Source of the DNA: Neolecta irregularis DAH-3
Lineage: Eukaryota
Length of the DNA: 52,506 nucleotides
Assembly (NCBI GenBank): GCA_001929475.1
Contig: LXFE01000143.1
Location: 1-52,506, forward strand
Direction of reading: 5' to 3'
Part shown: piece after piece, positions 5,507 to 52,337 of the stretch
Numbering within the stretch: position 1 is the stretch's first letter
Layout of the letters: the number at the start of each line of letters is the position of its first letter
The notes under the pieces: model-generated
Database searches by the model: none
Seen by the model: only the letters and a program-made list of their open reading frames with translations
Told to the model about the DNA's origin: nothing
Position numbers and translations under genes: made by a program

Positions 5507-7995
5507 TTAGCCAGTCATTACTCTCTCCAGTTTTGAAGCCCGTAGTTCTTTTAGCCGTGCCTCCATTTCAGGTACAGTGCGAAGATTGATTTCTAAGTTT
5601 TGTTTTTCCTCTTCTAATGCAAGTCGTTTTTCAACGTCCAATTTACAAAACACATACCCTCCATGTCCATCGTACTACCAGTTAAAATAACTCTAGAGGG
5701 CGAAATACTTGTAAAATATAATTGTGATATTTCCATAGACTTTGGCGATGACTTACACTGAGAAGCGTGATTCCCAGTTTAGCAGCATGAGTGTACAACG
5801 TGGTCTCGATATCCATCGACACCGCACTTGTACATTCATCAAGAATAGCATATTTTGGTTTATGATAAAACAAACGGGCCATCGCAATCAAATATATCAG
5901 TATTTGCAAACAAAGATGTATACCCTCTGTTTATCGCCTCCGGAGAGAGCCGAGCCCCATTCTCGTTCAGTGTCCCAACCGCCCTCTCGATCTACGATTC
6001 CTGAAATTTGTAATAATTCGAGAATGTGCATGAGATCATCGTCTGTGATTCCCCGGGCGGTCATTTCAAGACGGGTGTGTGGGTATATTACTTGATCGCG
6101 GAGGGTTCCAAGACACAAGTATGGTTTTTGGGGGATGTAAAAGATATCTTTTGAGTTGGGTTTACGTACCGTGCCGCCGTAAATAGGCCAGAGACCGCCT
6201 AGTATACGGAATAAACTACTTTTTCCTGATCCATTCGGTCCAGTAATGAGTGTATGTTGTCCAGGTTTCACATAAAAATTCAATTTTCGAACGAGTATGT
6301 CCCCGTTTGGTGAGATGATGGGGACGTCATCAAACACGATATCTCGACTGTCAATCACTGTCCCTCGGGATGCTAAAAGTTTACGGTCGGCATTGGTGAC
6401 TAGCTGTTTCTGGAAGTGATCCTTGGAGATATCGTCCATGGTTTCCAGCAATTCTGAAACACGAAGGGTGTATCCAGCAAGTTCGGCGATGTCTTTGTAA
6501 GAGTACATCAACCGCCCGATCGCATCTGAACTGGACAAGAGTAGTCGTCTATTTGTGACAAAACCTGCAATTAGAATTCTTTCAGTCAGGACGGGAATTA
6601 CCTTCAGTCCGACCACCAAGGCTCTTGTTTCCGATACCGGGAACCTTGAAGAACACGGGAACAGCGCACATGACGAGGCCTAGTGCACCCCAAAGATATT
6701 TGATCACGCTCAGGAAGTTAAATTTAGCTCTTCAGGGGAAAACTTACAAATCCTCCATCATTCCATGCCACAACCTTTGACGGAGAATTCTATTGATATG
6801 TTTTATCAATGCAAAGTATCCTCGATCCAGTGCCGTCCGTTCAATTTCATATCCCTGATAGAACGCAATTTCTTCAGAGTAATCGATCAATCGGGTATGC
6901 GTAAATCTGTACTCTCCTTCCAATCTCGCTTCTTCAGCAACATATTTCCCAAAACTAGGATTAAAAAAGGAGTTTTTATTAATAAACCATACGGTGGAGT
7001 TAGTGCTTTCATTACATTTCCACTGAGCTGAATAAGACAAGTCAGTGCAAACAGAGCCTCTGAGCCGACATTTCTAGAGAGTTTCCAATTATAGATAGTC
7101 ATATCGAGAACGGGTTTAGCGAGATTTGAAAAAATCTCCGCCAATGCATTGCTAAATTTGGCAACATCGACAGTGATCACCCTGCCGTGTCAGCCATAGA
7201 ATTCCACAGCGAGCTTACTGATCAGCGTTTTTGATGCGGTCGTCCAGATTAGCCAAAGCATAAAAGGTCATCTTCGAGAGGTATTGTTTGTGAATATGGC
7301 TAGTGAGCCGAGTTCTGTAAGAAATTGCGAGTTTGCATTGAAGAAAGGATATCTAGGTAGGCGTCAATGGAAATAGCAAGTCGGTCAAACCATGGAATTG
7401 GTGTAAGTTGCAGGAACTAAGTATTAAGATCGATTTCATAGCAAAAATATAGAAGTACCGGCGACTATCATCCACCAAAGTAGAGAAATCAAAAATTCTT
7501 TTCCTTTTCCTTTAACCTGGGGATAAGCTTGGATAGGAGATCTCTTTTACAAGCGCAGAAACAATGTGTCCATCTAATTCCGCAACGTATAAAGACACAA
7601 GGGTCCGGAAGACAAGAAATGCAGAGTACGAAGTAAGAAGGCCAAATTCTTTTGTTCGGATGCCAGGAACGACGATCTTTAGCAGTTTGTGCATTCGCTC
7701 AAAGAACGCGCGATTGATCTGGCATTAGAAATTTGTGTTTTTAAGCGCAAACCTCCGCTCCCTGCTTTCTACGACCATGCTTTGGTTTCTGGTCGGCTAC
7801 TGCAAGTCTGAGGCGGTTTATCCGATTATCAGCAAGGAGAAAAGTTGGGGCAGATACTACTGAGAGAATAAGAGTAATCCATGTTGCGCGAGTAATTAGT
7901 GTTCGGTGGAGAAGATATTTTTGAGCAATAGTTCCGAGAACTGAGCGGATATGTTTGTCTTCAAAACTATTACGCAAAGTCGACTGGCTCGACAT
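5507..7995 (-). CDS. PXA2: Peroxisomal ABCD half-transporter (Pxa2/PMP70-like), 11 introns
   Basis: Walker [10 protein letters not shown], signature [35 protein letters not shown]-like [22 protein letters not shown]; two introns need non-AG acceptors. Confidence 0.85.
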
Positions 7996-10858: not shown

Positions 10859-11895
10859 ATGTTAGCGTCCGCCCGTGACTTCAAGTATATTCTGTTGTTT
10901 CTTCGTATCTAATTTAAAAGTGCTGTTCGCAAAGCTATCCGAGATATTCTTCCGCAAAAAGGATACGACGATGGAAGTGCAGGACCGGTTCTCGTTCGTC
11001 TCGCATGGCATTGTAGTGGTACATACGACAACGAATCAAATACGGGTGGTTCAAATGGAGCCACCATGCGCTTCGCAATCGAAGCAAACGATCCGGCAAA
11101 TGCAGGTCTCCAGCAAGCCCGCGACTTTCTTGAACCAGTTAAAATGAAGTTTCCGTGGATTAGTTATGGCGATCTGTGGACTTTATCTGTACTATTTTTA
11201 TTTATGAGATATACTGAGACCAGGGCGTTGAGGCTATCAAAGCTATGGGCGGGCCAGATGTTCCTTGGCAAGGAGGTCGCTTGGACCATACCGACGATTC
11301 AGACGTCCCTGCGAATGGAAGATTACCAGATGGGGCCAAAGGAGAGGACCACTTGAGAAATATTTTCTATCGAATGGGGTTTAATGACCAAGAAATCGTT
11401 GCGTTGAGTGGTGCACATAATCTGGGGCATCGCCTATTCTAATCTCCATAAACTGATAAGTCAGACGATGTCATGCAGATCGATCTGGTTTCGAAGGGCC
11501 ATGGGTAAATAATCCGACTCGATTCTCAAATACCTAGTTCAACCTCTTTTAAAATTCAACTAATATCCAGTTTTAGATTGATGTTGAATGAAGATTGGAA
11601 ACTTGGACATAATTCAGTTGGAGTCCAGCAGTTTAGTGATTCTCGTAAACGCTTGATGATGTTGCCTTCTGATATGGCTCTTGTTCGTGATCCTCAGTTC
11701 AGGAAATGGGTAGAGCTATATGCCCAAAATCGGGAATTATTTTTCAAGGACTTCGCAAACGCATTTGGAAAATTAGTTGAACTTGGAATACAACGGGATA
11801 GCCAAGGGAATGTCATGAAAAAGGGATTGCAAAAGGGTAATGTCAAGGTCGACATTTCAGGGCCGGAAAGAGATGTTTCTAAAAGCAAGTTATAG
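10859..11895 (+). CDS. Class I heme peroxidase (cytochrome c peroxidase-like) with PTS1 SKL; 4 introns
   Basis: [39 protein letters not shown]-terminus SKL; introns 10885-10920, 11189-11223, 11427-11464 (GC-AG), 11537-11570. Confidence 0.9.
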
Positions 11896-14434: not shown

Positions 14435-17400
14435 TTAGTACCGGATCTTTTGAAAGACGTGCAGATTCCGGTAATGTACAGCTTTTACCAATATCCCCTT
14501 GTCGTCTTTAACAGACTGCTTTGACATTTCTCGTAACCATCTCAAAACGTCTATATAACGGCCCTTTTTGGCAAAAACATACAAGAAGGCATGATATCCC
14601 AACCTAGGGTTTAGGGGGTCGGCTCGTTGGAATATTTATACATACCATTTAATCCCTTCATTGGTAATAGAGCACTTGCAGTTTCGCGCCAACCCTCGGA
14701 TAATGGTACACTGAAAGTCCAGTATCTGAGATACCACGACTAGAAATAAGTCCATGATAAATATGATTCTCACACTTAATATACTCTCCCAGCGGCTTCG
14801 GGGAAAAGGAAATATATGCGTGTGTACGCATAGCCGCAAGAATGAGATTCTGAAAGATGTTTACAAGAACTGTATATCGCGAATTAAACTCTTCGTCGAA
14901 AAACATTGCGTTTCCCTTCAATCTCATCGAGCTACGGTAAACACAAACCAGTCAATTGGAAACATATACTTGAATATCTTTGACAAAATCGCGGTCCCTG
15001 GATTTTTGTTATATTCCACGGTCAACGTATCCTTGATATCTAAAGTGAACATTCGTCTTTACAAAGACTTACGAACACCATCGTACCGTGAATAGTCTTG
15101 TCGAACATCGAGCGTCTCCGTATTGAGAATATTCCCACAGTAAGGAAATTCTCGAGTCCCGACAAGTCGAGCAACTTTGTGATTATTAATCGTAATTTCA
15201 AAATTGACAAGAGATTTGTCTGGGTTGACAAAACAGCCGTATGCGGGGTTTCCAACAAGATCAGAACAAACCCCTCAAAAACAAGTACCGTCGTGCATGA
15301 TTTGGAGAAACTCTTGAGCATTGTTACGATCAGTCGTGATAAACAGAAAATCATCCACGATACGAATCAACACCTTCAATTTTAAATCAAGTTGACTAAA
15401 AGCACACTCACTCCACTCTGTTCCGTCAAAAATTTGATACAACGTCGCTCGAAATGGCCGTAGAAAAAGTTGCACAGGATAGTTGAAAGGACTGAGCCTT
15501 GGGGAATTCCCTGCACTTGTCTATAGTACCGCTTTCCAATCTACTGGTATCAGCCTAGATCTGGAAAATGGGCTACCTTGACCAGATTATTTGTAATATG
15601 CTGTGTTAATAAATTCAAAACCTCAGACTTCTCCATCAACCCGTAAACCACTCTGTCGACTAAAATCGAATGACGCATGGTATCATTGATAAGTTCATTG
15701 GCAAATTGTTCAAATTGCATCAATTCGAAAGATGGTCGGGCTTTGGTATAAAAGCGCCGGCGAGGACAGTCCAACTTGCAACAAACACTCGCATACTTTT
15801 GTAAAAGATATTCGTCTTCAGTCAACATCTCTTCAATAATCGCCAGCAATTGATCCTGCGAAATAGTATCAAAGCAAGCCTGAATATCTACCTTTGCGAA
15901 ATACAACTTTGGTCATAAAGGTAAGTGACAGAGGTGAGGAAACGCCTTACTTTGGGCGGGGACACTTTTTGAACGTTCTTAGCTTTTGATACATTTCTGT
16001 TGTAGAGAATGCAGAGGCTCCAAGGAGCGATGGGTCTCGTTGCTGCATTGTCAAGCAAGGCGCAATTATACCAGACCTTTTCAAACTGAAGGATGCTATG
16101 CACAGGCCCAAGCACAGAATTAATGCTCGACTGCAAATAAGTATGTGTAGATCCATTATCCCTAATTTCCTAGATCTGTAAGTCTTAATAGACAAAAGGG
16201 CGTTAACTGTTCTCAGTCCCCTTCTTCGGAGATTCATAATCGGCCGTACACCGGCTTCTTTAGGTAGTAAACGAATGAACGAGAAAGACAACTGTCTCCT
16301 CGCCAGAATCCTCGTTGCTTCAATCTACGTCAGCATGGAATACTCTAGGGAATATACCAATGGAACGTCCTGAAACATGGAATGCTTCAAATGATTCAAC
16401 GCTGGTTCCGAGATTTTTTTCCATAAATCATGTCGAAAATACAATACCCTATTTCGCGTCTTTGCGCATTCCGAAATGTAAAAGTGCGAACGGAGTAATG
16501 GAATCACAATGGAATCAAAAATCCAATAAATAAACTCTGCCAGAATTTCTTTACGTTTAGTGATATCCGAGTGGCAGGTTTTTTGGCAGAGTTGCATGGA
16601 CTTAGGAGATAACCAGGTCATTTCCTTGATCTGGAATTAAAGATGAACAATGGGTTCGTACCTTGATGTTTTGTAAAACTTGATGTAGGGAAAAGAGTTC
16701 ATAGCGTCGAAGACGAATAAAAGAGTCAATGTCTAAAGTTGAGAATTTTCGCCTGGGACAAATAGTACAAGACATTACAACCTGAAAATTTCGAGTACTA
16801 CCCCAAAAGGTCTTCGGGATAACGCGAGATATAGATGCTCGAATAAATGCAGATACCTCTTTATAAATAAAATATTGAAAACGATTACCTCGATATGCGA
16901 AGAATCAAGTTCCGTGAGACTCGATTTCTTTTTCGAGAGATATGCCAGTTGGCTAATAGCTATACTAGCTGCCTCGTTCGTAACGGTCAATGGAGCCTGA
17001 CTCATTGGCCATGAATCGTGTTCAATGATCTCCTCATGGAAATATTCGACAGACCCATCTAAGCGCTATAATAAGCAGCGCAAACGGCTCAAAACATACA
17101 GGAACAGGACAATAATATTTTACCATGGCAGAATAGGAACATCGCGAATGTAACTTGATCATACGCGAAACCACGTTTAAAAGATCCATCAATCTTGTTG
17201 GAATTTTGTATCCCTTTTGTCTTGCCGCGCTTAAGATTTCCTTGTCACGGACAGTATAATCTTGAAAAGGCTGAATTGTCTTCTTGCGATCAACAGTGCA
17301 AGTAAATACATTATGCAGTCCAAACTGTCGTGGAAACATGTACTGGAGGATAGTAGAGCAATGGTCAAGATCATCCGGGTTTTTATATCGATTAAAGATA

Positions 17401-22462: not shown

Positions 22463-23052
<590 letters not shown>

Positions 23053-23179: not shown

Positions 23180-24679
23180 TTATATCATTTTGAAACATGC
23201 CTTCCACATCCCTCCTGCAAGACCATTCCCTATAGAAAGTTTCTCGGCCAAAATACCAGATAAGTTCGCATCAGGCTGTGTGTGAAATAAACCAGCCTGA
23301 ATATACAACTCAAGTACTGCATGTGCTTCAACATCAGTGTATGTTTCGACAGGTATCAATGTAGTCCCATCAATACTGTTGGTCACCCTTTCATCAAAAT
23401 GCTCAAAAGGTGAAGCTTCTTCAGCACCAATAATATGGTTGAGAGTAATATTTTTCTTTGGTTTAGAGGATGTCGTTGCAATAACCGCGCCATTTTTCAG
23501 ATGTCAGAAAGATCTAAAAGAAATGCACTTACTAGCTTCTTGGAACCATTGAGATAGGAGATAAACCATGATGCTAGAGCGAAATCATGTGGATGAATAG
23601 ATTTCAAATCTGCGGTAAAATACTTCGAGGGCACTGACAGAGCGGAGAAATTATCCAAAGTCAAGAGAACACTCGGCCGGTTCTCTTGATTCAGCTGTTC
23701 CATTAATGCCTGTAGAACTTCATAAGAACAGAGAGGATCGCGAATACCGCAACCGATTAATCGAGTAAGGTCATCTCCGAGTTGAATTGTCTTGTTTTGT
23801 CCAAAACTATACGACCGCGTGCATTTAATCTATGCATCAGGATCGAGTGTGGAATTTGGAATACTCCGCCCAAGGCATCCAAATTGGCATCTTTCGTTCG
23901 TTCAAGGAGAGCCGCAGTAAACTGGTGTTGATGATATAACCCGGAATTTTTGTCCAGGGAATAACTTGTTGTATTGTCCACCAATTCAAGCCCTGTAATA
24001 ATGTTCCAATTAACAGGGAAAAAGAGGAATACCTCTAGGAACTGCAATAACTATCCAGTCGTTCATTAGAGCATGTACTTGCGCTTGCAGAAGTAAAACG
24101 CTTTTTCCTGAGCCAGCTGGCCCCGTCAATAAACAGCGTCTCATTTCACTGGAAGCCTTTCCATCCAATCTTTGGCACAAGTCAATCGTTTCATTGCGGA
24201 TCACAGGAGAAAATTGGTAAAAGTATTGAAAGCCTTGACAGGGATGAAACACTTGCAGAGTAGATAGCTTTGCAGTGATCGCAGCAGAAGAAGCCAGACA
24301 GGAACCGCAGAGACTCGAATTTGTCAAAGAATCTTTCAATAACTCCTCGATATCGAGATTCTTTGGCCGTGCTGAGAAAGAACTGGATATTGGATCACAG
24401 CCGAGAGTTGCTTTCAGTAATGACGTCGTCTGAAAGGCCATATCGACTGTTGTCTTGACTTTATTTCCACCGCTGCCCTTGTCTTTCTTTTTAGAGGGTC
24501 CGTATCCCGGCTTGCTTGCTTTTTTCTTTTCTGGATCCAGTCAGTATGAACGCAGTGTAGGCGGTTTGATTACTTGAAGCAACAGCCGGTCCTTTGGCAC
24601 AAACTCGACTTGCCGAGAGAGCTCTGGTGTATAGTTTCAGACTTTTTGAAGCCTGGAGCGATATGCGCCGCAGTTTCAT
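23180..24679 (-). CDS. RSM23: Mitochondrial small-subunit ribosomal protein mS29 (DAP3/Rsm23); 4 introns
   Basis: P-loop LTGPAGSGKSVLLLQ, WIVIAVP, VLLTLDNFS, IHPHDFALASWF; last intron needs a CTG acceptor. Confidence 0.85.
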
Positions 24680-30818: not shown

Positions 30819-31458
30819 TCACTCTGCGCTCGGCTCCTTCGATGAGACTGTTGCGGACTCACCCTCACAGCCGCATTTATACTTGTCTGCAATAGTCCCA
30901 CAATCAAAAACCACCTTCTTGAGGCCTGGTTTCTTAGTCAACTGGGCTTGTTTAAAAAAGCGGACTTACTCTCGTTAACCATGTTATGAATGTGACAGCC
31001 CCACTGTGAAGCAGCTTCCCGCGATGACGTCTGTGGTGGATACCATTTCAAAAAACCTTGAAAGTGCTCTGCACATTCACCGCATGGATATAATCGCGCA
31101 AACAGATGGACGTACGACGACAGAGCAGTTCGTTCATCTACCGTCGGTTTTTCCGGAAACCGCGCAAGGATCGTATGGAATAACTTTATCCATCAAATCT
31201 CTTTAATTTATAAGCGTTCGCTTACCTTCCATGACGCCCTTCCCAGTTCAGCTCTAGGTCGTCAGTATATACTACATTGGATTTGGCGTGCTTTGTCGTT
31301 TCATCTCCCAAGGGAGTCATGATTGCCCCACCCTGCACGACCTCAGGAGGTCCATTTATCACAGGCGCCATCACAATCGATGAGCTACAGTAAAAATAGG
31401 CAGTTAACGCCAGCATTATGAACGCCAATATGAGCGCAGACAGTCTGCGCAAGGCCAT
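30819..31458 (-). CDS. ERV2: Erv2-type FAD-linked sulfhydryl oxidase; 3 introns
   Basis: N-terminal signal anchor, AELGRASWKLFHT, YPCGECAEHF, CHIHNMVN, C-terminal CGC. Confidence 0.9.
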
Positions 31459-45104: not shown

Positions 45105-47072
45105 TCAAATTCTACTTTTGATTGGTTTATCGGCACTGATTTGATTACGAAGAACTCGTCTCAAGATTTTTCCAGATGGGCTTTTGGGAATGACTTGAAC
45201 AAACTTGATACCTCCTCGTAGCCGTTTATGAGGAGCAACTCGTTCGTTCATGAAGGCGACGAGCTCCTTTACTAAATTATCTGAAGCCGATACACCTGGA
45301 GCTGGGACGATGAAGGCTAACGGAAGTTCAGAAGCAACTGAACTCGAATATACTCCGACTACACCGGCATCACCCACCTTTGGATGTGAAAGGAGCAATC
45401 CTTCCAGTTCTGCGGGTGCAACCTGGAATCTAAAAGTAGGCAAGTGAAAATAATAAAGCCGTACCCTTTATATTTAATCAATTCTTTGATTCGATCTGTG
45501 ATGTAGTAATTGCCATGCGTATCGACACGACCAACATCTCCAGTTTTGAAGAATCCGTCTTTTGTAAAAGAACGCGAATTGGCTTCAGGATTGTTGAGAT
45601 ACCCTATAGATCGATTAATAGAGCTAATTCGAACAAAATACCAAGCATGACGTTTGGGCCTCTGAGCCACAATTCACCTTCTTTTCCCGCAGGAACTTCT
45701 GACACGAGTTAGACAATTGCAACTCGCTAGCACATGCCATCCCCATCTTCATTCACAAACTTTGCTTCGATATTGGGGAAAAGAACACCGATAGAACCTG
45801 GAATTAGCCTTCGCGTGTATAGCATAGTTACCGTATACACGCCAACCGTTTACTCCATCCCACTTCTGGGCGTGAGTCGTAGGCGAGGTCTCAGTAAGAC
45901 CATATCCTAGTCATAGGTACACTCCGCCAAGATAAATGTTGGTACCTTGCTTCACTGGTATTCCTAATCGTTCATGGGCTTCCAAAACCAGTTCCTTGGT
46001 CAATGGCGCGGCGCCGCTGTTAATCATTCTCAATGATGAGAGATCATAATTCTTGATCGAAGGATCCTTTGCAAGTAGTAATACAATCGGTGGCACGATA
46101 TGTGCATAAGTCACTAGATCATAAGTGTGTTTTCTTACACTAGACTTACCTTTATATTTTTGCACAGCTTTGCAAAATAGAGCCAATTCGAACCTTTGAA
46201 GGACGACAAGTCCAATTCCTTGATAAATTCCGACATGAGCCAGAGTTGTCAGTCCACTGGAAATTTAGCGATTTCTTGTGTATCCAAACATATACTATAT
46301 ATGGAAAAGAGGCAGACAAGCCATATATCGATCTTTCACTGTCGTATTATGCTCGTCTACTCTAATGGTTTGTAGTGTATTCGCAATTATATTACGGTGG
46401 CTTAACATGACGCCCTTTGGGAGACCTAGGATTATCAATTGAAATAGGCAGGGGCACCCATACCAGTCGTCCCAGAACTAAAGGCCAAGAAGGCAACATC
46501 TCGGGTGGGATCAATTTTATCCTTGGGATAATTTGCCCGTCGCGAAGTCCATAGGTTTTTCCATGGCTCAAAATCTTCAACTTTTTTGTCACCGAATAAG
46601 ATAATTCGATCCTTGGGGATCCCAACCTTCCTTGCTGCTTCAGTAACAACAGACAATAGTTGAGGAAGCGCAATAATAGCTTTTGCATTAGAGCTCACAA
46701 GCTGGTGAACAAGCTCGCCGACTTGATATGCTGGATTAGATGGAGTAACTTGAATATCAAAGAAATCTTTGAATTTTTGGAAGAACCTATGCCTGCGGCG
46801 AAATGAACACCCCAGGCAACAACAGTATAATCATACTGATTTGGGCTAAAGATACAAAATACGTCGTTCTTCTTCCAATTCCAACGATCTTGAAGACCTG
46901 CGCCGAACCGCTGGGAAGCTTCTCGTACTTGACCAAATGTCAAGTATTTTCCCGAATGCGCATCGAACAGCACAGGGTGATTTTCACCAAAATCCGGTGA
47001 TCTGTTGAAGAGAAAAGATGGGATATCCGTATTGGGGATGTCGATATCTTCAAATTTCGATTTCAGGGGCAT
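45105..47072 (-). CDS. 4-coumarate/phenylacetyl-CoA ligase-like acyl-CoA synthetase with PTS1-like SRI; about 9 introns
   Basis: [65 protein letters not shown]. Confidence 0.9.
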
Positions 47073-48214: not shown

Positions 48215-51200
48215 TCACCCCCTTGAAATAAACATTTTCGTATCTTCAAGCAGAAGAGTTTCTCTATCATCGCGTTCTTTGCGCTGAATGTGGAATGCAT
48301 GTGAATGAATGATATTCCTCTTTTGTTGAAGGGTAGATTTTGTGGTCTGAGTTTGGTTTGCGTTGACTTTCCTTCCATTGACCATAGCCTTCCTAATACT
48401 CTCTTTCCTTGCATTCTGAGAGTTCTCCAGTGCATTTATGACTGCTCCTCCTTCAATCTTGAAATTTTTGACAAGACTATCCGCTTGCTCTTCAAGATGT
48501 TGCATTTTCTGAACGATAATCTGCTTTCAGGAGCGACCTTTTAGAGAAAATACCTTTCCAATAGTTAAAAGCAAGCTAAGTGTGCTTTCTTGGTGACAAT
48601 TCATTTTCCGATACCATTCAGGTGGTGGCACACTTTCATCTGAGGAAGGTGCCAGTCGGTCGTCGTCGTCGATCTCCGAATCTGTCGAAACTGATGGAGT
48701 TGTATATCGAAGAGTGCTTTTCAATTCAGTCTGAGTAGGTTTTGTGAGCAAGCCCTTTTGTTGCAAAATTTCATAGAATGTACCTGGCATTCCAACATTG
48801 GTTGTTTCTACTAGGTGAGCTTGAAACACCGTTCCGATATACTCTTTCCTGGAATTTCATCAAACGCCTTTATCTGATCGTTAATACCTCTCGCACGATG
48901 CCCATGAGAAAGCTCGCAAGAATCGGTATATAAATGACTGATAATCGTCTGATTCCCATTCTCTGGGGTCTTATATGCGCTAGTCTTGGTGGTTAAGGGG
49001 ACAAGGCTGCTGTTTGAGATAAAGTGGGATGGAATTCTGGCAGGTTTGACCTGTATTTGAGCGATATGAGGACCCGAGCTATGACTATCATCTCCAAGAT
49101 AGAAACAAGGCGCTAATATAGGAACCACAGCCTCGCTGGGTGCGGATGCCTGGGAAAGAGAAATGTTGCTAGGTTTCCTTCGTGCAAGCTCAAACTTTTC
49201 TGTGACTACCTATTTTCTTTATTAGTTCAGGACGCCTTGCTTGGTGGGATACATGGGAAATATCAACTTCTGATTCTCGAAGAGGTCTCTCCGCAGTTTG
49301 TATCCCTTTCAGTGCGTTGACAATACTGCAACCAGTAGTCTTTCTTAAGTTTTCTATAATATACTTCGATCCGCCAAGGCTCCCAATATCCTTGTTAATT
49401 CCAGTCCTTCCTTCTCCCGTGATTATGGCCAGATTATGAGAAATATGCGTGTTTAAGATCAAATTTTGCTCTTTGCACGCTGAAAGCTTGTTCTCTAGAC
49501 TTTGTTGTGCCTGGTAGTTGATCTTGCTAAACGAGATATTTTCAAGACCTACCTGGTTCTGATCATTGCCCAAAGTTCCTGAGGTATGAGGTTGGGCAAC
49601 AGGACAGATTATTGGAATGTAGAGATTCGCCGCACTAGCCGAGAGATGATTTCCTGATGGTTTTACCGTCTCATGGAATGTGGAATAGGTCCTTTCTAGA
49701 ATGGGTACAGCTCTTCTTATCTTGTGTCGCGAACTTTCTTTTCCACCAGGGTTGTCATCCGCTGGTTCTTTTCCGGATTCCGCGAGGGGTTGAGATATTT
49801 TCTTTAATTCGTAATCAAAAGTGCTTGATGATTCGTCTTCGTGCAAAATGAGGTTATCGCCTTGTTTCATCATGACTGGACTCGCAACATCCTTCATGAT
49901 TTCATCATCTTCTCGAGTATATATGATTTCTTTGAGATCGGCCTTATGTTAATCGAACAGCTGGACAAATTTGGGGCACTTGCTATTGGTTCATCTTCAT
50001 CACTTGCTATCGTAATTCTTGACTTCTTTAATGGAGAATGGTCCAGATTCGCAGGGGCGCTTTGTCGGTCTCTTTTCTTTGTGATTCGTTGCTCTTCCTC
50101 GTCCCCTTCAGAATACTGTGACTTCAAAAGTAGAGTTGGTCTGATAGGTTCCGATTTTCGTACGTTTCTCTTTTGTGATTGTTTTGCCGCAAGGTTCTTC
50201 GAAGATTTAGAGGCCCAATCGTTTGGTTGGCCATTGGGAGGTCTGCCTCTTTTCGGTTTGATCGGTAAAGATTCAGAGTCTTTTCCGGTGGCTTTCTTTG
50301 TAGGCTTAATAGCTTTTCGCAATGGTGGACTGCATTTATCTCTCTCTTCGTCATTGCTGCTGGTAACCGGGAAGTCGAAAATATCAATTTCCATTATTTT
50401 CTCTGCCTTAATTTTAGATTTCTGATAAGTTTTGAACGTTATTTTGGCTTCTGAGTTCCCGGAAGTCTTTCCATTTTTACCCTTATTTTCGATAATTTCA
50501 GTGGTTTCTAGTAGTTCGCGTCTATCGATTTCTTTGACTTTCGGCATGGACGTCTTACGTTTCCTGGTAGTTGTCTGACTTGGTATTTCATCGAACAAAT
50601 AAGCCAGTTTTGCAGATCTAGAGGATATATCTGCATTATCCGGAATTATCTTGGATTTATTCAGGGGTCCTTTAGGAGGCGAAGATGCAATAATTCCAGC
50701 AGAGATGTCTTTTGATCCTGCACATCGAGTCAGATCAGTTTTCGAGAATCTTTTGCCTTCGATTGGAGACCCATGTTCTTGCACATACGCCTCAAAATTG
50801 TCTGAAGATTTGGCAAGATCAATCATCTTTTGCAAGCGTATCTCTTCAGTCTGTCCAGTTTCCCAATCTGACTCCTTGGGTGGCATCTTTGGTTGCAAGA
50901 CCTTTGCAGAAGTGCTTGTACGAGACGTAGATGATCTCAATTGAGACTTGAAGAGCTCAAGGCGGTTTTTAGCGACTGTAAAAGAGTTCAAATCGCGGAA
51001 TTTCATAGATATACTGTAGATCTCGCTATCATCTTGAATGTACCTGGATGCTTCACATTTGAGTTTGAATACAACTCGGAATTCTTGGTCGATAAAAGAG
51101 GGAATTTCTAGATATTCAAGAGGAAAATCAAATTCTTCGATGAAATCAAACTCGGCGGAAGTTATCGTGAGGAAGTCATTGGCTATGTGAACAAGATAAT

Positions 51201-52337
51201 AAGAGTCCTCAATTTCTATCGCTTTTCCGTTAATATTAAGGCAATGAAGCTCAAGGGAGACAGGCCTAGATCTTTAAAACTGGTCAACAGACATGTATGG
51301 TGTTTTACCCATCGACCCTACGCGAATTTTCGTGGACCAACCAGTCGTACATCGTACCTAAAGCCTCGTTGGAAAGGACAGCTTGACTTAAAGTCTGAAA
51401 TTGTCTCGTAGTGAGAATTCCTTGGAAGAATAATTCCATCCGTTTGGTGACAGCTTGGGCCGCTAAGGGTTTACCTCGTGGGGGTGACAACTGCCAAAGC
51501 AACGTGACACAGTACAGTTGAGTTCTGAAATCAGACGATGACATGATGAGTCTCCCAAATTTTGTACTTCAGATCAGTATTTAGGTCCAGAGATGCTTTA
51601 CAAGTCAATCTCGTAGCGGGCGTTGATGATCTTCTCCTTGTTTGATATACAGCCTTTACATAGAATTTCAAGAAGCCTTGCGAGCTAGATATCTTAGCAA
51701 TTTGTGCCCTCATCTTGCTAATACTGTTCTCTTAATCACAACAGAAGAATCCTCACGGAGCAGTTGTTGAAGTATTCGAGTAACTAATGTCGAAGGCAAG
51801 GCTTCCCTCGGATCCAGCTCTTCAGCATTCAGATATATATCAGGAACGACACAAACCTAGTTGAATAAGGTCAGAGCACCATTTCTGGAGGTTCAGTTGG
51901 GATAAAAGATAGAACTTCTTACCAGGAGTAACTCGAATCCAGCTGTTCGTGTTTTGTTGCAGGGAAGACACAGGAGTATTCTCAATGAAAATGCGAAAAT
52001 TTCTGAAGATATCTGAAACCTCTGTAAAGAATCGATAGCATTCATAATATCGATTATGTCTTTCTCTCCTAGCTAAACTGTGGGTTTCGAAAAATGAAGT
52101 CGAGCATATACTTCAACAGCAGTCGGAATATTTTCACCTTCCAACTCGAAAGGTCTCAGCAACTGATCTATTTCATCGATTATCATTTGAGGTAACCTGT
52201 GAATGCGTTGAAAAGCTTAGTCAACAAATATTTAACCTCAAGAAATGTTCTGTATTGCATGACATTTTTCCTGTCGTTTTGGGGATTTTCGGTTTCTTAT
52301 TTGTCTTGAGAAAACGAATTAGAGAGATGAAAGACAT
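48215..52337 (-). CDS. Large multi-exon protein, SYCP2/Rec10/Red1-like meiotic axis protein candidate
   Basis: Spliced N-terminus is helical with FGRLIMSSSDFRTQLYCVTLLWQLSP, then a beta-rich PH-like segment, long K/S-rich disorder with KRGRP, and a C-terminal coiled-coil-like region; 3' end approximate. Confidence 0.5.

Follow-up and report, generated by a model that had tools for sequence, protein, structure and literature searches.

Intron ends and the mS29 gene of Neolecta irregularis

Few signals in eukaryotic genes vary as little as the AG at the end of U2-type introns. In the 52,506 nucleotides of contig LXFE01000143.1 of Neolecta irregularis DAH-3 analyzed here (the window), the minus-strand gene for the mitochondrial ribosomal protein mS29, also known as DAP3 or RSM23, is interrupted by a 35-nucleotide insert (23532-23498) with a consensus donor and branch motif whose last three letters are CTG. 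This raises the question of whether the insert is an intron that ends in TG. A first-pass annotation, made from the letters alone, had read it in this way. Our results suggest that 23532-23498 is probably a true intron of the GT-TG class, used constitutively, and that this genome has such ends more than once.

The mS29 gene and its deposited model

The name RSM23/DAP3 given by the first-pass annotation was borne out both by the Pfam family PF10236 and by the name of a deposited protein, P0001 ('37S ribosomal protein S23, mitochondrial [Neolecta irregularis DAH-3]'). Each of the four exon pieces examined matched PF10236, in order at positions 2-59, 62-101, 104-203 and 205-309 of the DAP3 profile. 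Three of them scored above the 23.1-bit cut-off (52.9, 75.4 and 27.7 bits) and a 42-residue piece scored below it (21.9 bits); together they cover positions 2-309 of 311, which places the gene in the family. The best match in the PDB was DAP3 of the Neurospora mitoribosome (6yw5_XX). With the 99-residue exon 4 as query, a full HMMER search of 1.84 billion representatives returned one 100% identical protein, P0001, and the runner-up shared 41% identity. Exact mapping of P0001 placed its exons at 24679-24574, 24530-24033, 23992-23865 and 23829-23500, separated by GT-AG introns of 43, 40 and 35 nucleotides. The features of the gene that are needed below are the following.

24531..24573, minus strand: canonical intron of 43 nucleotides, from the exact mapping of P0001
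23993..24032, minus strand: canonical intron of 40 nucleotides, from the same mapping
23830..23864, minus strand: canonical intron of 35 nucleotides (GTATTC..CTGAT..ATAG), from the same mapping
23533..23829, minus strand: exon 4, 99 codons, ending ...SKKL at a codon boundary; DAP3 positions 104-203, expectation value (E) 6e-21; residues 245-343 of P0001 at 100% identity
23498..23532, minus strand: proposed GT..TG intron of 35 nucleotides, with the best profile score on removal and the median length of the 31 canonical introns described below
23527..23532, minus strand: donor GTAAGT, read from the sequence
23503..23507, minus strand: branch motif CTGAC, with the presumed branch A at 23504, 6 nucleotides from the intron end
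23498..23500, minus strand: 3' end CTG, with T at 23499 in place of the expected A
23180..23497, minus strand: last exon, 105 codons plus stop, starting KNGAVIATTSS; DAP3 positions 205-309, E 2e-6

The deposited protein does not use the proposed intron. It ends with 11 residues translated from the 35-nucleotide block as far as a TGA, and at 354 residues, where approximately 448 are expected, it lacks the 105 residues encoded downstream. Removal of the 35 nucleotides restores a protein of 343 + 105 = 448 residues, and the 17 homologues used below span 400-515 residues.

Frame logic at the junction

On the minus strand the junction reads ...AAGCTA, then GTAAGTGCATTTCTTTTAGATCTTTCTGACATCTG, then AAAAATGGCGCG, where GTAAGTGCATTTCTTTTAGATCTTTCTGACATCTG is the 35-nucleotide insert and the sequence directly upstream of it is TCCAAGAAGCTA. 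The coordinates and letters of the first-pass annotation (GTAAGT, CTGAC, 35 nucleotides, an end in CTG at 23498..23532) proved right. Left unspliced, the upstream frame is open across the block and stops at TGA 23499-23497, while the downstream mS29 frame, blocked by TGA 23506-23504, starts from CAT CTG AAA AAT GGC. Because the two frames are closed by these TGAs, linking them needs an end between 23503 and the Gly codon. A removal that joins the frames and keeps the downstream Gly-Ala-Val comprises 2 mod 3 nucleotides and ends between 23503 and about 23492 (the Gly codon), and no AG acceptor was found in that interval.

The nearest AG 3' of the CTG lies 42 nucleotides away (23457-23456), and there is none between the branch and the CTG. 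When the GT..AG pairs between the two open reading frames (ORFs) were enumerated, 19 solutions were obtained, the shortest of which is 77 nucleotides long (23532-23456), and each of them deletes at least KNGAVIATTSSKPK, including a block that is conserved in the family. It had been claimed that the sole internal AG would give an out-of-frame intron of 18 nucleotides. The frame was correctly judged; the length was not, as TTTTAG ends at position 19, nor is this AG the only one, since the donor GTAAG contains another.

The pair GTAAGT..CTGAC occurs a single time in the window, where 0.29 occurrences are expected, and 27 of 100 shuffles contain it at least once; the motif pair alone is compatible with chance. 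What goes beyond chance is its location exactly at the frame break and the homology break. With its GT and extended donor, its branch motif (CTRAY) at the proper distance, its length and the frame that it restores, the insert has the features of a U2-type GT-AG intron apart from the terminal AG, in place of which it ends in CTG. It agrees with the non-canonical U2-type class GT-TG, which is defined by a GT start, a TG end and a U2-type donor and branch. Minor-class (U12-type) introns have a highly conserved donor and branch-site consensus, and a minor-class assignment was rejected, as GTAAGTGC and TTTCTGAC misfit these motifs when compared by eye.

The frame break could also be bridged without any splicing, if the ribosome shifted frame near ATCTGAAAAAT, read through and inserted the intron-encoded peptide. 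An A-rich stretch does follow the stop, but the insert has a flawless donor and branch motif, spaced as is typical of the genome, and the homologues have no 11-residue insertion at this point. Frameshifting is therefore hardly credible as an explanation of the locus.

Homology across the junction

To place the boundary, we aligned 17 full-length homologues from the HMMER search and built a hidden Markov model (HMM) from them. The Pfam DAP3 profile crosses the junction at positions 203 and then 205, and it is contiguous only when the last exon starts at or beside AAA AAT GGC. All 17 homologues carry the block ..(F/Y)L(S/N)Gxxx(L/F)xxG(A/G/L)(V/I)(I/L)A(A/T)(T/S)S... The 35-nucleotide model, in which ..YLNGSKKL is joined to KNGAVIATTSS.., aligns with them without gaps (..YLSxxxxLxxGAVIAATSS..) and in register under xxGAV(I/L)A(A/T)TSS, and its spacing at the conserved block is that of Saitoella (P0005). 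The alternative removals scored against the mS29 HMM as follows.

35-nucleotide removal: 374.0 bits
32-nucleotide removal: 370.7 bits
38-nucleotide removal: 365.8 bits
77-nucleotide GT-AG removal: 336.5 bits, 37.5 below the 35-nucleotide model
Read-through (deposited protein): 285.4 bits, 88.6 below the 35-nucleotide model

Judged by homology at the level of the predicted protein, both the canonical 77-nucleotide alternative and the deposited mS29 model are rejected. The same comparison sets the predicted boundary to within about one codon of the CTG, and the GT donor and the branch geometry pick among the near-ties. The claim that splicing at CTG joins the open C-terminal frame (KKLKNGAVIA) is upheld by the profile continuity, the alignment of the 17 homologues, the HMM scores and the lack of a compatible AG.

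The last exon alone had no match by protein word search or in the PDB, and its homology was visible via Pfam and the family HMM only. Protein searches with mS29 yielded no relative nearer than approximately 41% identity, and none of the 319 pattern matches from a metagenome scan with exon 4 was a relative.

Just downstream of mS29, at 22700-22900, lies a tandem array of G-rich/C-rich 9-mers (GGGAGAG[G/A/T]C-type units on the plus strand), one frame of which spuriously matched Pfam 'Collagen'.

Intron geometry in the window

The usual dimensions of introns in this genome were assessed on the 61 adjacent ORF pairs chained in 16 gene-like ORF chains of the window. A pair was considered solved when it was joined by a single GT..AG intron of 29-60 nucleotides containing a YTRAN motif with its A 4-12 nucleotides from the end. 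By this rule 31 of the 61 pairs were solved canonically, with a median intron length of 35 nucleotides and a range of 31-43. The distance from the branch A to the end was 5 nucleotides in two of these introns, 6 in ten, 7 in eight, 8 in four, 9 in three, 10 and 11 in one each and 12 in two, and the last triplets were CAG (16), TAG (10) and AAG (5). The introns are thus extremely short and stereotyped, but their donors are loose: the 31 introns show 25 different hexamers, GTTTGC, GTCCGC and GTAGAC among them. Exact mapping of two deposited proteins, P0001 and P0062 (see below), contributed seven more short GT-AG introns, giving 38 in total. The insert at 23532-23498 has the median length (35 nucleotides), the modal distance from A to end (6 nucleotides, 10/31) and a pyrimidine at -3, and its CTG occupies the exact place that CAG takes in a normal intron.

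These dimensions bear on the possibility that the next AG is used.

23456..23532, minus strand: rival GT..AAG intron of 77 nucleotides, in frame; deletes KNGAVIATTSSKPK; the shortest of the 19 GT-AG solutions

Removal of this canonical intron (23532-23456) would leave a protein short of 14 residues. It is bounded by GT and AG, keeps the frame and is the shortest canonical solution, and as a minor isoform it is conceivable. Its product, however, lacks the GAVIATTSS block that is present in 17/17 aligned homologues, at a cost of 37.5 bits; its AG lies 48 nucleotides from the branch A, compared with 5-12 nucleotides in the 31 canonical introns, and its length falls outside their range of 31-43 nucleotides. 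Since no stable structure that would shorten the distance was found between the branch and the distal AG at 23457-23456 (z -0.05), this geometry is uncompensated. We consider it very unlikely that the 77-nucleotide intron is what the cell removes.

The automatic rule left 30 of the 61 pairs, including both TG cases of the window (the second is described below). For several others, small exons or other frames gave canonical solutions by eye (in eIF3b, the AMP-binding gene, a Zn-cluster factor and, for its second intron, ERV1); the remainder came mostly from the telomerase reverse transcriptase gene (TERT) and a large gene without Pfam match. Statistics of intron end dinucleotides drawn from ORFs only showed no excess of AG, because any in-frame end passes. 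Permitting TG ends solved 5 of 20 open junctions, and the control dinucleotide GA also solved 5 of 20; only homology fixes the boundaries. Three TERT junctions 'solved' by TG in this way were not taken as TG introns. A codon-usage model separated coding from non-coding ORFs poorly and is weak.

A second probable GT-TG intron in an ABCD transporter gene

A peroxisomal ABCD/PXA-type transporter gene on the same contig contains a second candidate of this kind.

5889..5923, minus strand: second proposed GT..TG intron, 35 nucleotides, GTATAC..CTGAT..TTG, with the branch A at 5897, 8 nucleotides from the end
5709..5888, minus strand: Walker-B/H-loop exon of 60 codons, skipped by the deposited protein P0062

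The upstream exon ends ..LSGGDKQR (5924) and is followed by the intron GTATACATCTTTGTTTGCAAATACTGATATATTTG (5923-5889) and then by ATT GCG ATG. Aligned with solved ABCD chains, the exon ends fall at consecutive residues (589/590 in 9wfu_A, 612/613 in 7rr9_A, 587/588 in 8z0f_A and 573/574 in 6jbj_A). The next AG downstream of the TTG is 14 nucleotides away. P0062, which is deposited under the name 'ATP-binding cassette sub-family D member 2 [Neolecta irregularis DAH-3]' (locus 5510-7995, minus strand), passes from ..GGDKQR to YDGHGGYVF.. via an intron of 249 nucleotides, whereas its other eight introns measure 34-42 nucleotides. The 60-residue Walker B/H-loop segment that P0062 lacks is present in every homologue inspected. 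Against an HMM built from 14 ABCD homologues, the TTG model scored 1162.3 bits, ends one codon to either side scored 1156.3 and 1152.9 bits, and the deposited protein scored 998.4 bits (+164 for TTG).

The features of the GT-TG class are found at 5923-5889 as well. As far as sequence comparison can tell, this predicted intron behaves like that of mS29, which makes the TG end a recurrence and no one-off. The original reading of the mS29 insert as an intron with consensus donor and branch thus gained two further supports, namely the genome-typical geometry and an independent second GT..TG intron on the contig. TG introns make up 2 of the 40 short introns resolved by script (31 + 7 + 2), a rate that is biased upward, as the window was chosen for a TG feature.

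The recurrence bears on two further explanations. According to the first, the organism has a normal CAG at the end of the mS29 intron, and the T at 23499 reflects either a mistake of assembly or base calling or a private variant of the specimen that was sequenced. One change from A to T would indeed suffice to make 23532-23498 ordinary, the assembly was made from field-collected fruiting bodies and has an N50 of 16 kb (PMC5309816), and a junction in TERT at 15950 (see below) can be explained by a one-base homopolymer miscall. On the other hand, the identical substitution at -2 would be needed twice in 52 kb (23499 and 5890), and neither position lies within a homopolymer. Because the coverage of the assembly is 199-fold (PMC5309816), a miscall of A as T is unlikely to have occurred at the same position of both introns, and we regard an error or private variant as quite improbable.

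According to the second, the acceptor is dead: the intron would be retained and a truncated protein of 354 residues made, from a pseudogene or null allele whose loss a further nucleus or allele makes good. The deposited P0001 matches this read-through product exactly, and a UG 3' splice site is strongly defective in budding yeast (10.1101/212811). Yet the 105 downstream codons are open and match DAP3 positions 205-309, the read-through model costs 88.6 bits, and mS29 is a core protein of the mitoribosome. The same 'defect' is moreover found in the ABCD gene, where the downstream exon is intact and highly conserved. A dead acceptor is thus very unlikely.

Other unusual junctions in the window

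GC-AG introns are a common non-canonical class, well known everywhere, and two of them were identified in the window.

11427-11464, plus strand: GC-AG intron of 38 nucleotides (GCATCG..CTGAT..TCAG) in a cytochrome c/ascorbate peroxidase-like gene, directly after the GAHNLG heme-ligand motif
45699-45737, minus strand: GC-AG intron of 39 nucleotides (GCATGT..GTCTAAC..TCAG) in an AMP-binding (acyl-CoA ligase-like) gene, checked by translation continuity only

The exons of the peroxidase gene aligned with yeast cytochrome c peroxidase (1stq_A) up to residue 177 and from residue 180; residues 178 and 179 would be filled by the split Gly codon and the unaligned first residue of the second query. The intron of the AMP-binding gene joins ..FVNEDGD to EVPAGKEGELWLRGP. 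Like the TG introns, GC-AG introns differ from the canonical form in a second or penultimate base and have otherwise normal signals, but it is the donor that is affected and not the acceptor.

In TERT, the GT-AG pair GTAAGG..CCAAAG at 15907-15950 (minus strand) spans 44 nucleotides, one too many for the frame. Removing 43 nucleotides (GT..AA or TA..AG) keeps the frame, CCAAAG being repeated at both ends, and the sole canonical alternative, of 76 nucleotides, deletes the start of motif A. The junction at 15950 would be explained by a further odd intron or by a one-base miscall in the upstream A5 homopolymer.

The ERV1/ALR gene (31184-31260, minus strand) has a 28-nucleotide exon (31253-31226) that encodes ..ELGRASWK and is flanked, as judged by eye, by two tiny introns. 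Downstream of it lies a canonical GT-AG intron of 42 nucleotides. No GT was found within 23-70 nucleotides for the upstream one, which would fit a GC-AG intron of 38 nucleotides (GCACGC..TACTGAC..CTAG). In a large gene without Pfam match (48218-51568, minus strand), the first AG past the branch motif is out of frame at 48844-48887 and at 49930-49979; in-frame canonical ends would need the next AG, which would give introns of 44 and 50 nucleotides with the branch A 16 and 19 nucleotides away.

Weight of the evidence and possible mechanism

Several observations weigh against a GT-TG intron in mS29. The annotation underlying P0001 has no splice at 23532-23498 and ends in a read-through peptide. 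An in-frame GT-AG alternative of 77 nucleotides exists, and removals of 32 and 38 nucleotides score just 3-8 bits below that of 35. The frames at TERT 15950 do not close canonically, so that some assembly error is possible in general. Finally, a U at position -2 of the 3' splice site causes a strong second-step defect in Saccharomyces cerevisiae (10.1101/212811), and efficient use of UG would therefore need a spliceosome that behaves differently. The unspliced annotation itself weighs little, as the pipeline evidently allowed canonical sites only.

The sequence, the frame logic, the continuity of homology, the geometry and the recurrence are established; that the RNA is cut at the TG, how efficiently, and for what structural reason are matters that we infer. 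The 35 bases at 23532-23498 would be a major-type (U2-type) spliceosomal intron that is cut after CTG, giving a full-length mS29 of approximately 448 residues. Because introns here are approximately 35 nucleotides long, with the branch adenosine merely 5-10 nucleotides from the 3' end, the 3' site may rest on distance, pyrimidine and terminal G: cleavage would be set mainly by the fixed short branch distance, the pyrimidine at -3 and the terminal G, and a U would be tolerated at -2, where the branch A normally has an A as its partner. Since there is a second GT..TTG intron and GC-AG donors are frequent, the requirements on terminal dinucleotides look relaxed in the Neolecta lineage.

In a more general form, Y-U-G would be a regular, productive class of 3' splice sites in N. 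irregularis, found in a few per cent of the approximately 35-nucleotide introns and accompanied by frequent GC donors. The spliceosome may place the cut mainly by the 5-10-nucleotide distance and the terminal G, and the contact between A(-2) and the branch A would be dispensable, perhaps via changes in Prp18, Slu7, the Prp8 alpha-finger or Prp22 proofreading. We consider the chances of this wider proposal to be evenly balanced.

Precedents and implications

TG has been verified as an alternative 3' splice site in 36 human genes (Szafranski et al. 2007, PMC2374985). The human sites share with those of Neolecta the GT donor, the U2-type signals and the terminal TG in place of AG (PMC2374985). 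In contrast to these alternative sites, no site other than the TG yields the conserved protein in Neolecta, in two genes and in introns of 35 nucleotides; at 23532-23498 there is no AG close by to which the TG could be an alternative, unlike in the human cases, and it would be the main site. The same intron class also occurs, as a rarity, in another fungus, the carefully annotated Ganoderma lingzhi, whose annotation lists 22 GT-TG introns against 89,855 GT-AG introns (PMC11590231). The frequency is approximately 0.02% there, compared with 2/40 (biased upward) in the Neolecta window.

In S. cerevisiae lacking Prp18, non-YAG sites and sites less than 10 nucleotides from the branch are used (Roy et al. 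2023, PMC10711555). The combination of branch-to-3' splice site distances below 10 nucleotides with non-AG ends is shared with Neolecta, and the lead that it offers is relaxed docking or proofreading. In that yeast, however, it is a mutant phenotype with minor aberrant products, whereas the TG of Neolecta would be a wild-type, productive event. In the yeast P-complex, the G(-1) of the 3' splice site pairs with the G(+1) of the 5' splice site and A(-2) pairs with the branch A (10.1101/212811). Judged by titles and abstracts, no literature on splice-site usage in Neolecta was found; RNA-seq from two specimens of N. irregularis is reported in a 2026 paper, which names the series GSE300630 (PMC13263728).

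GT-TG introns are already known; what would be new is their constitutive use in core genes, in introns of 35 nucleotides. Both deposited proteins are incorrect, since their models were restricted to canonical sites, which truncated P0001 by 105 residues and left P0062 without its Walker B exon. If the wider proposal holds, the present gene models of N. irregularis would be systematically wrong wherever such introns occur. Wild-type, productive UG splicing of essential genes would be a natural test of the model in which A(-2) pairs with the branch A, and it would also test the idea that very short distances from branch to 3' splice site relax the fidelity of 3' site choice (PMC10711555).
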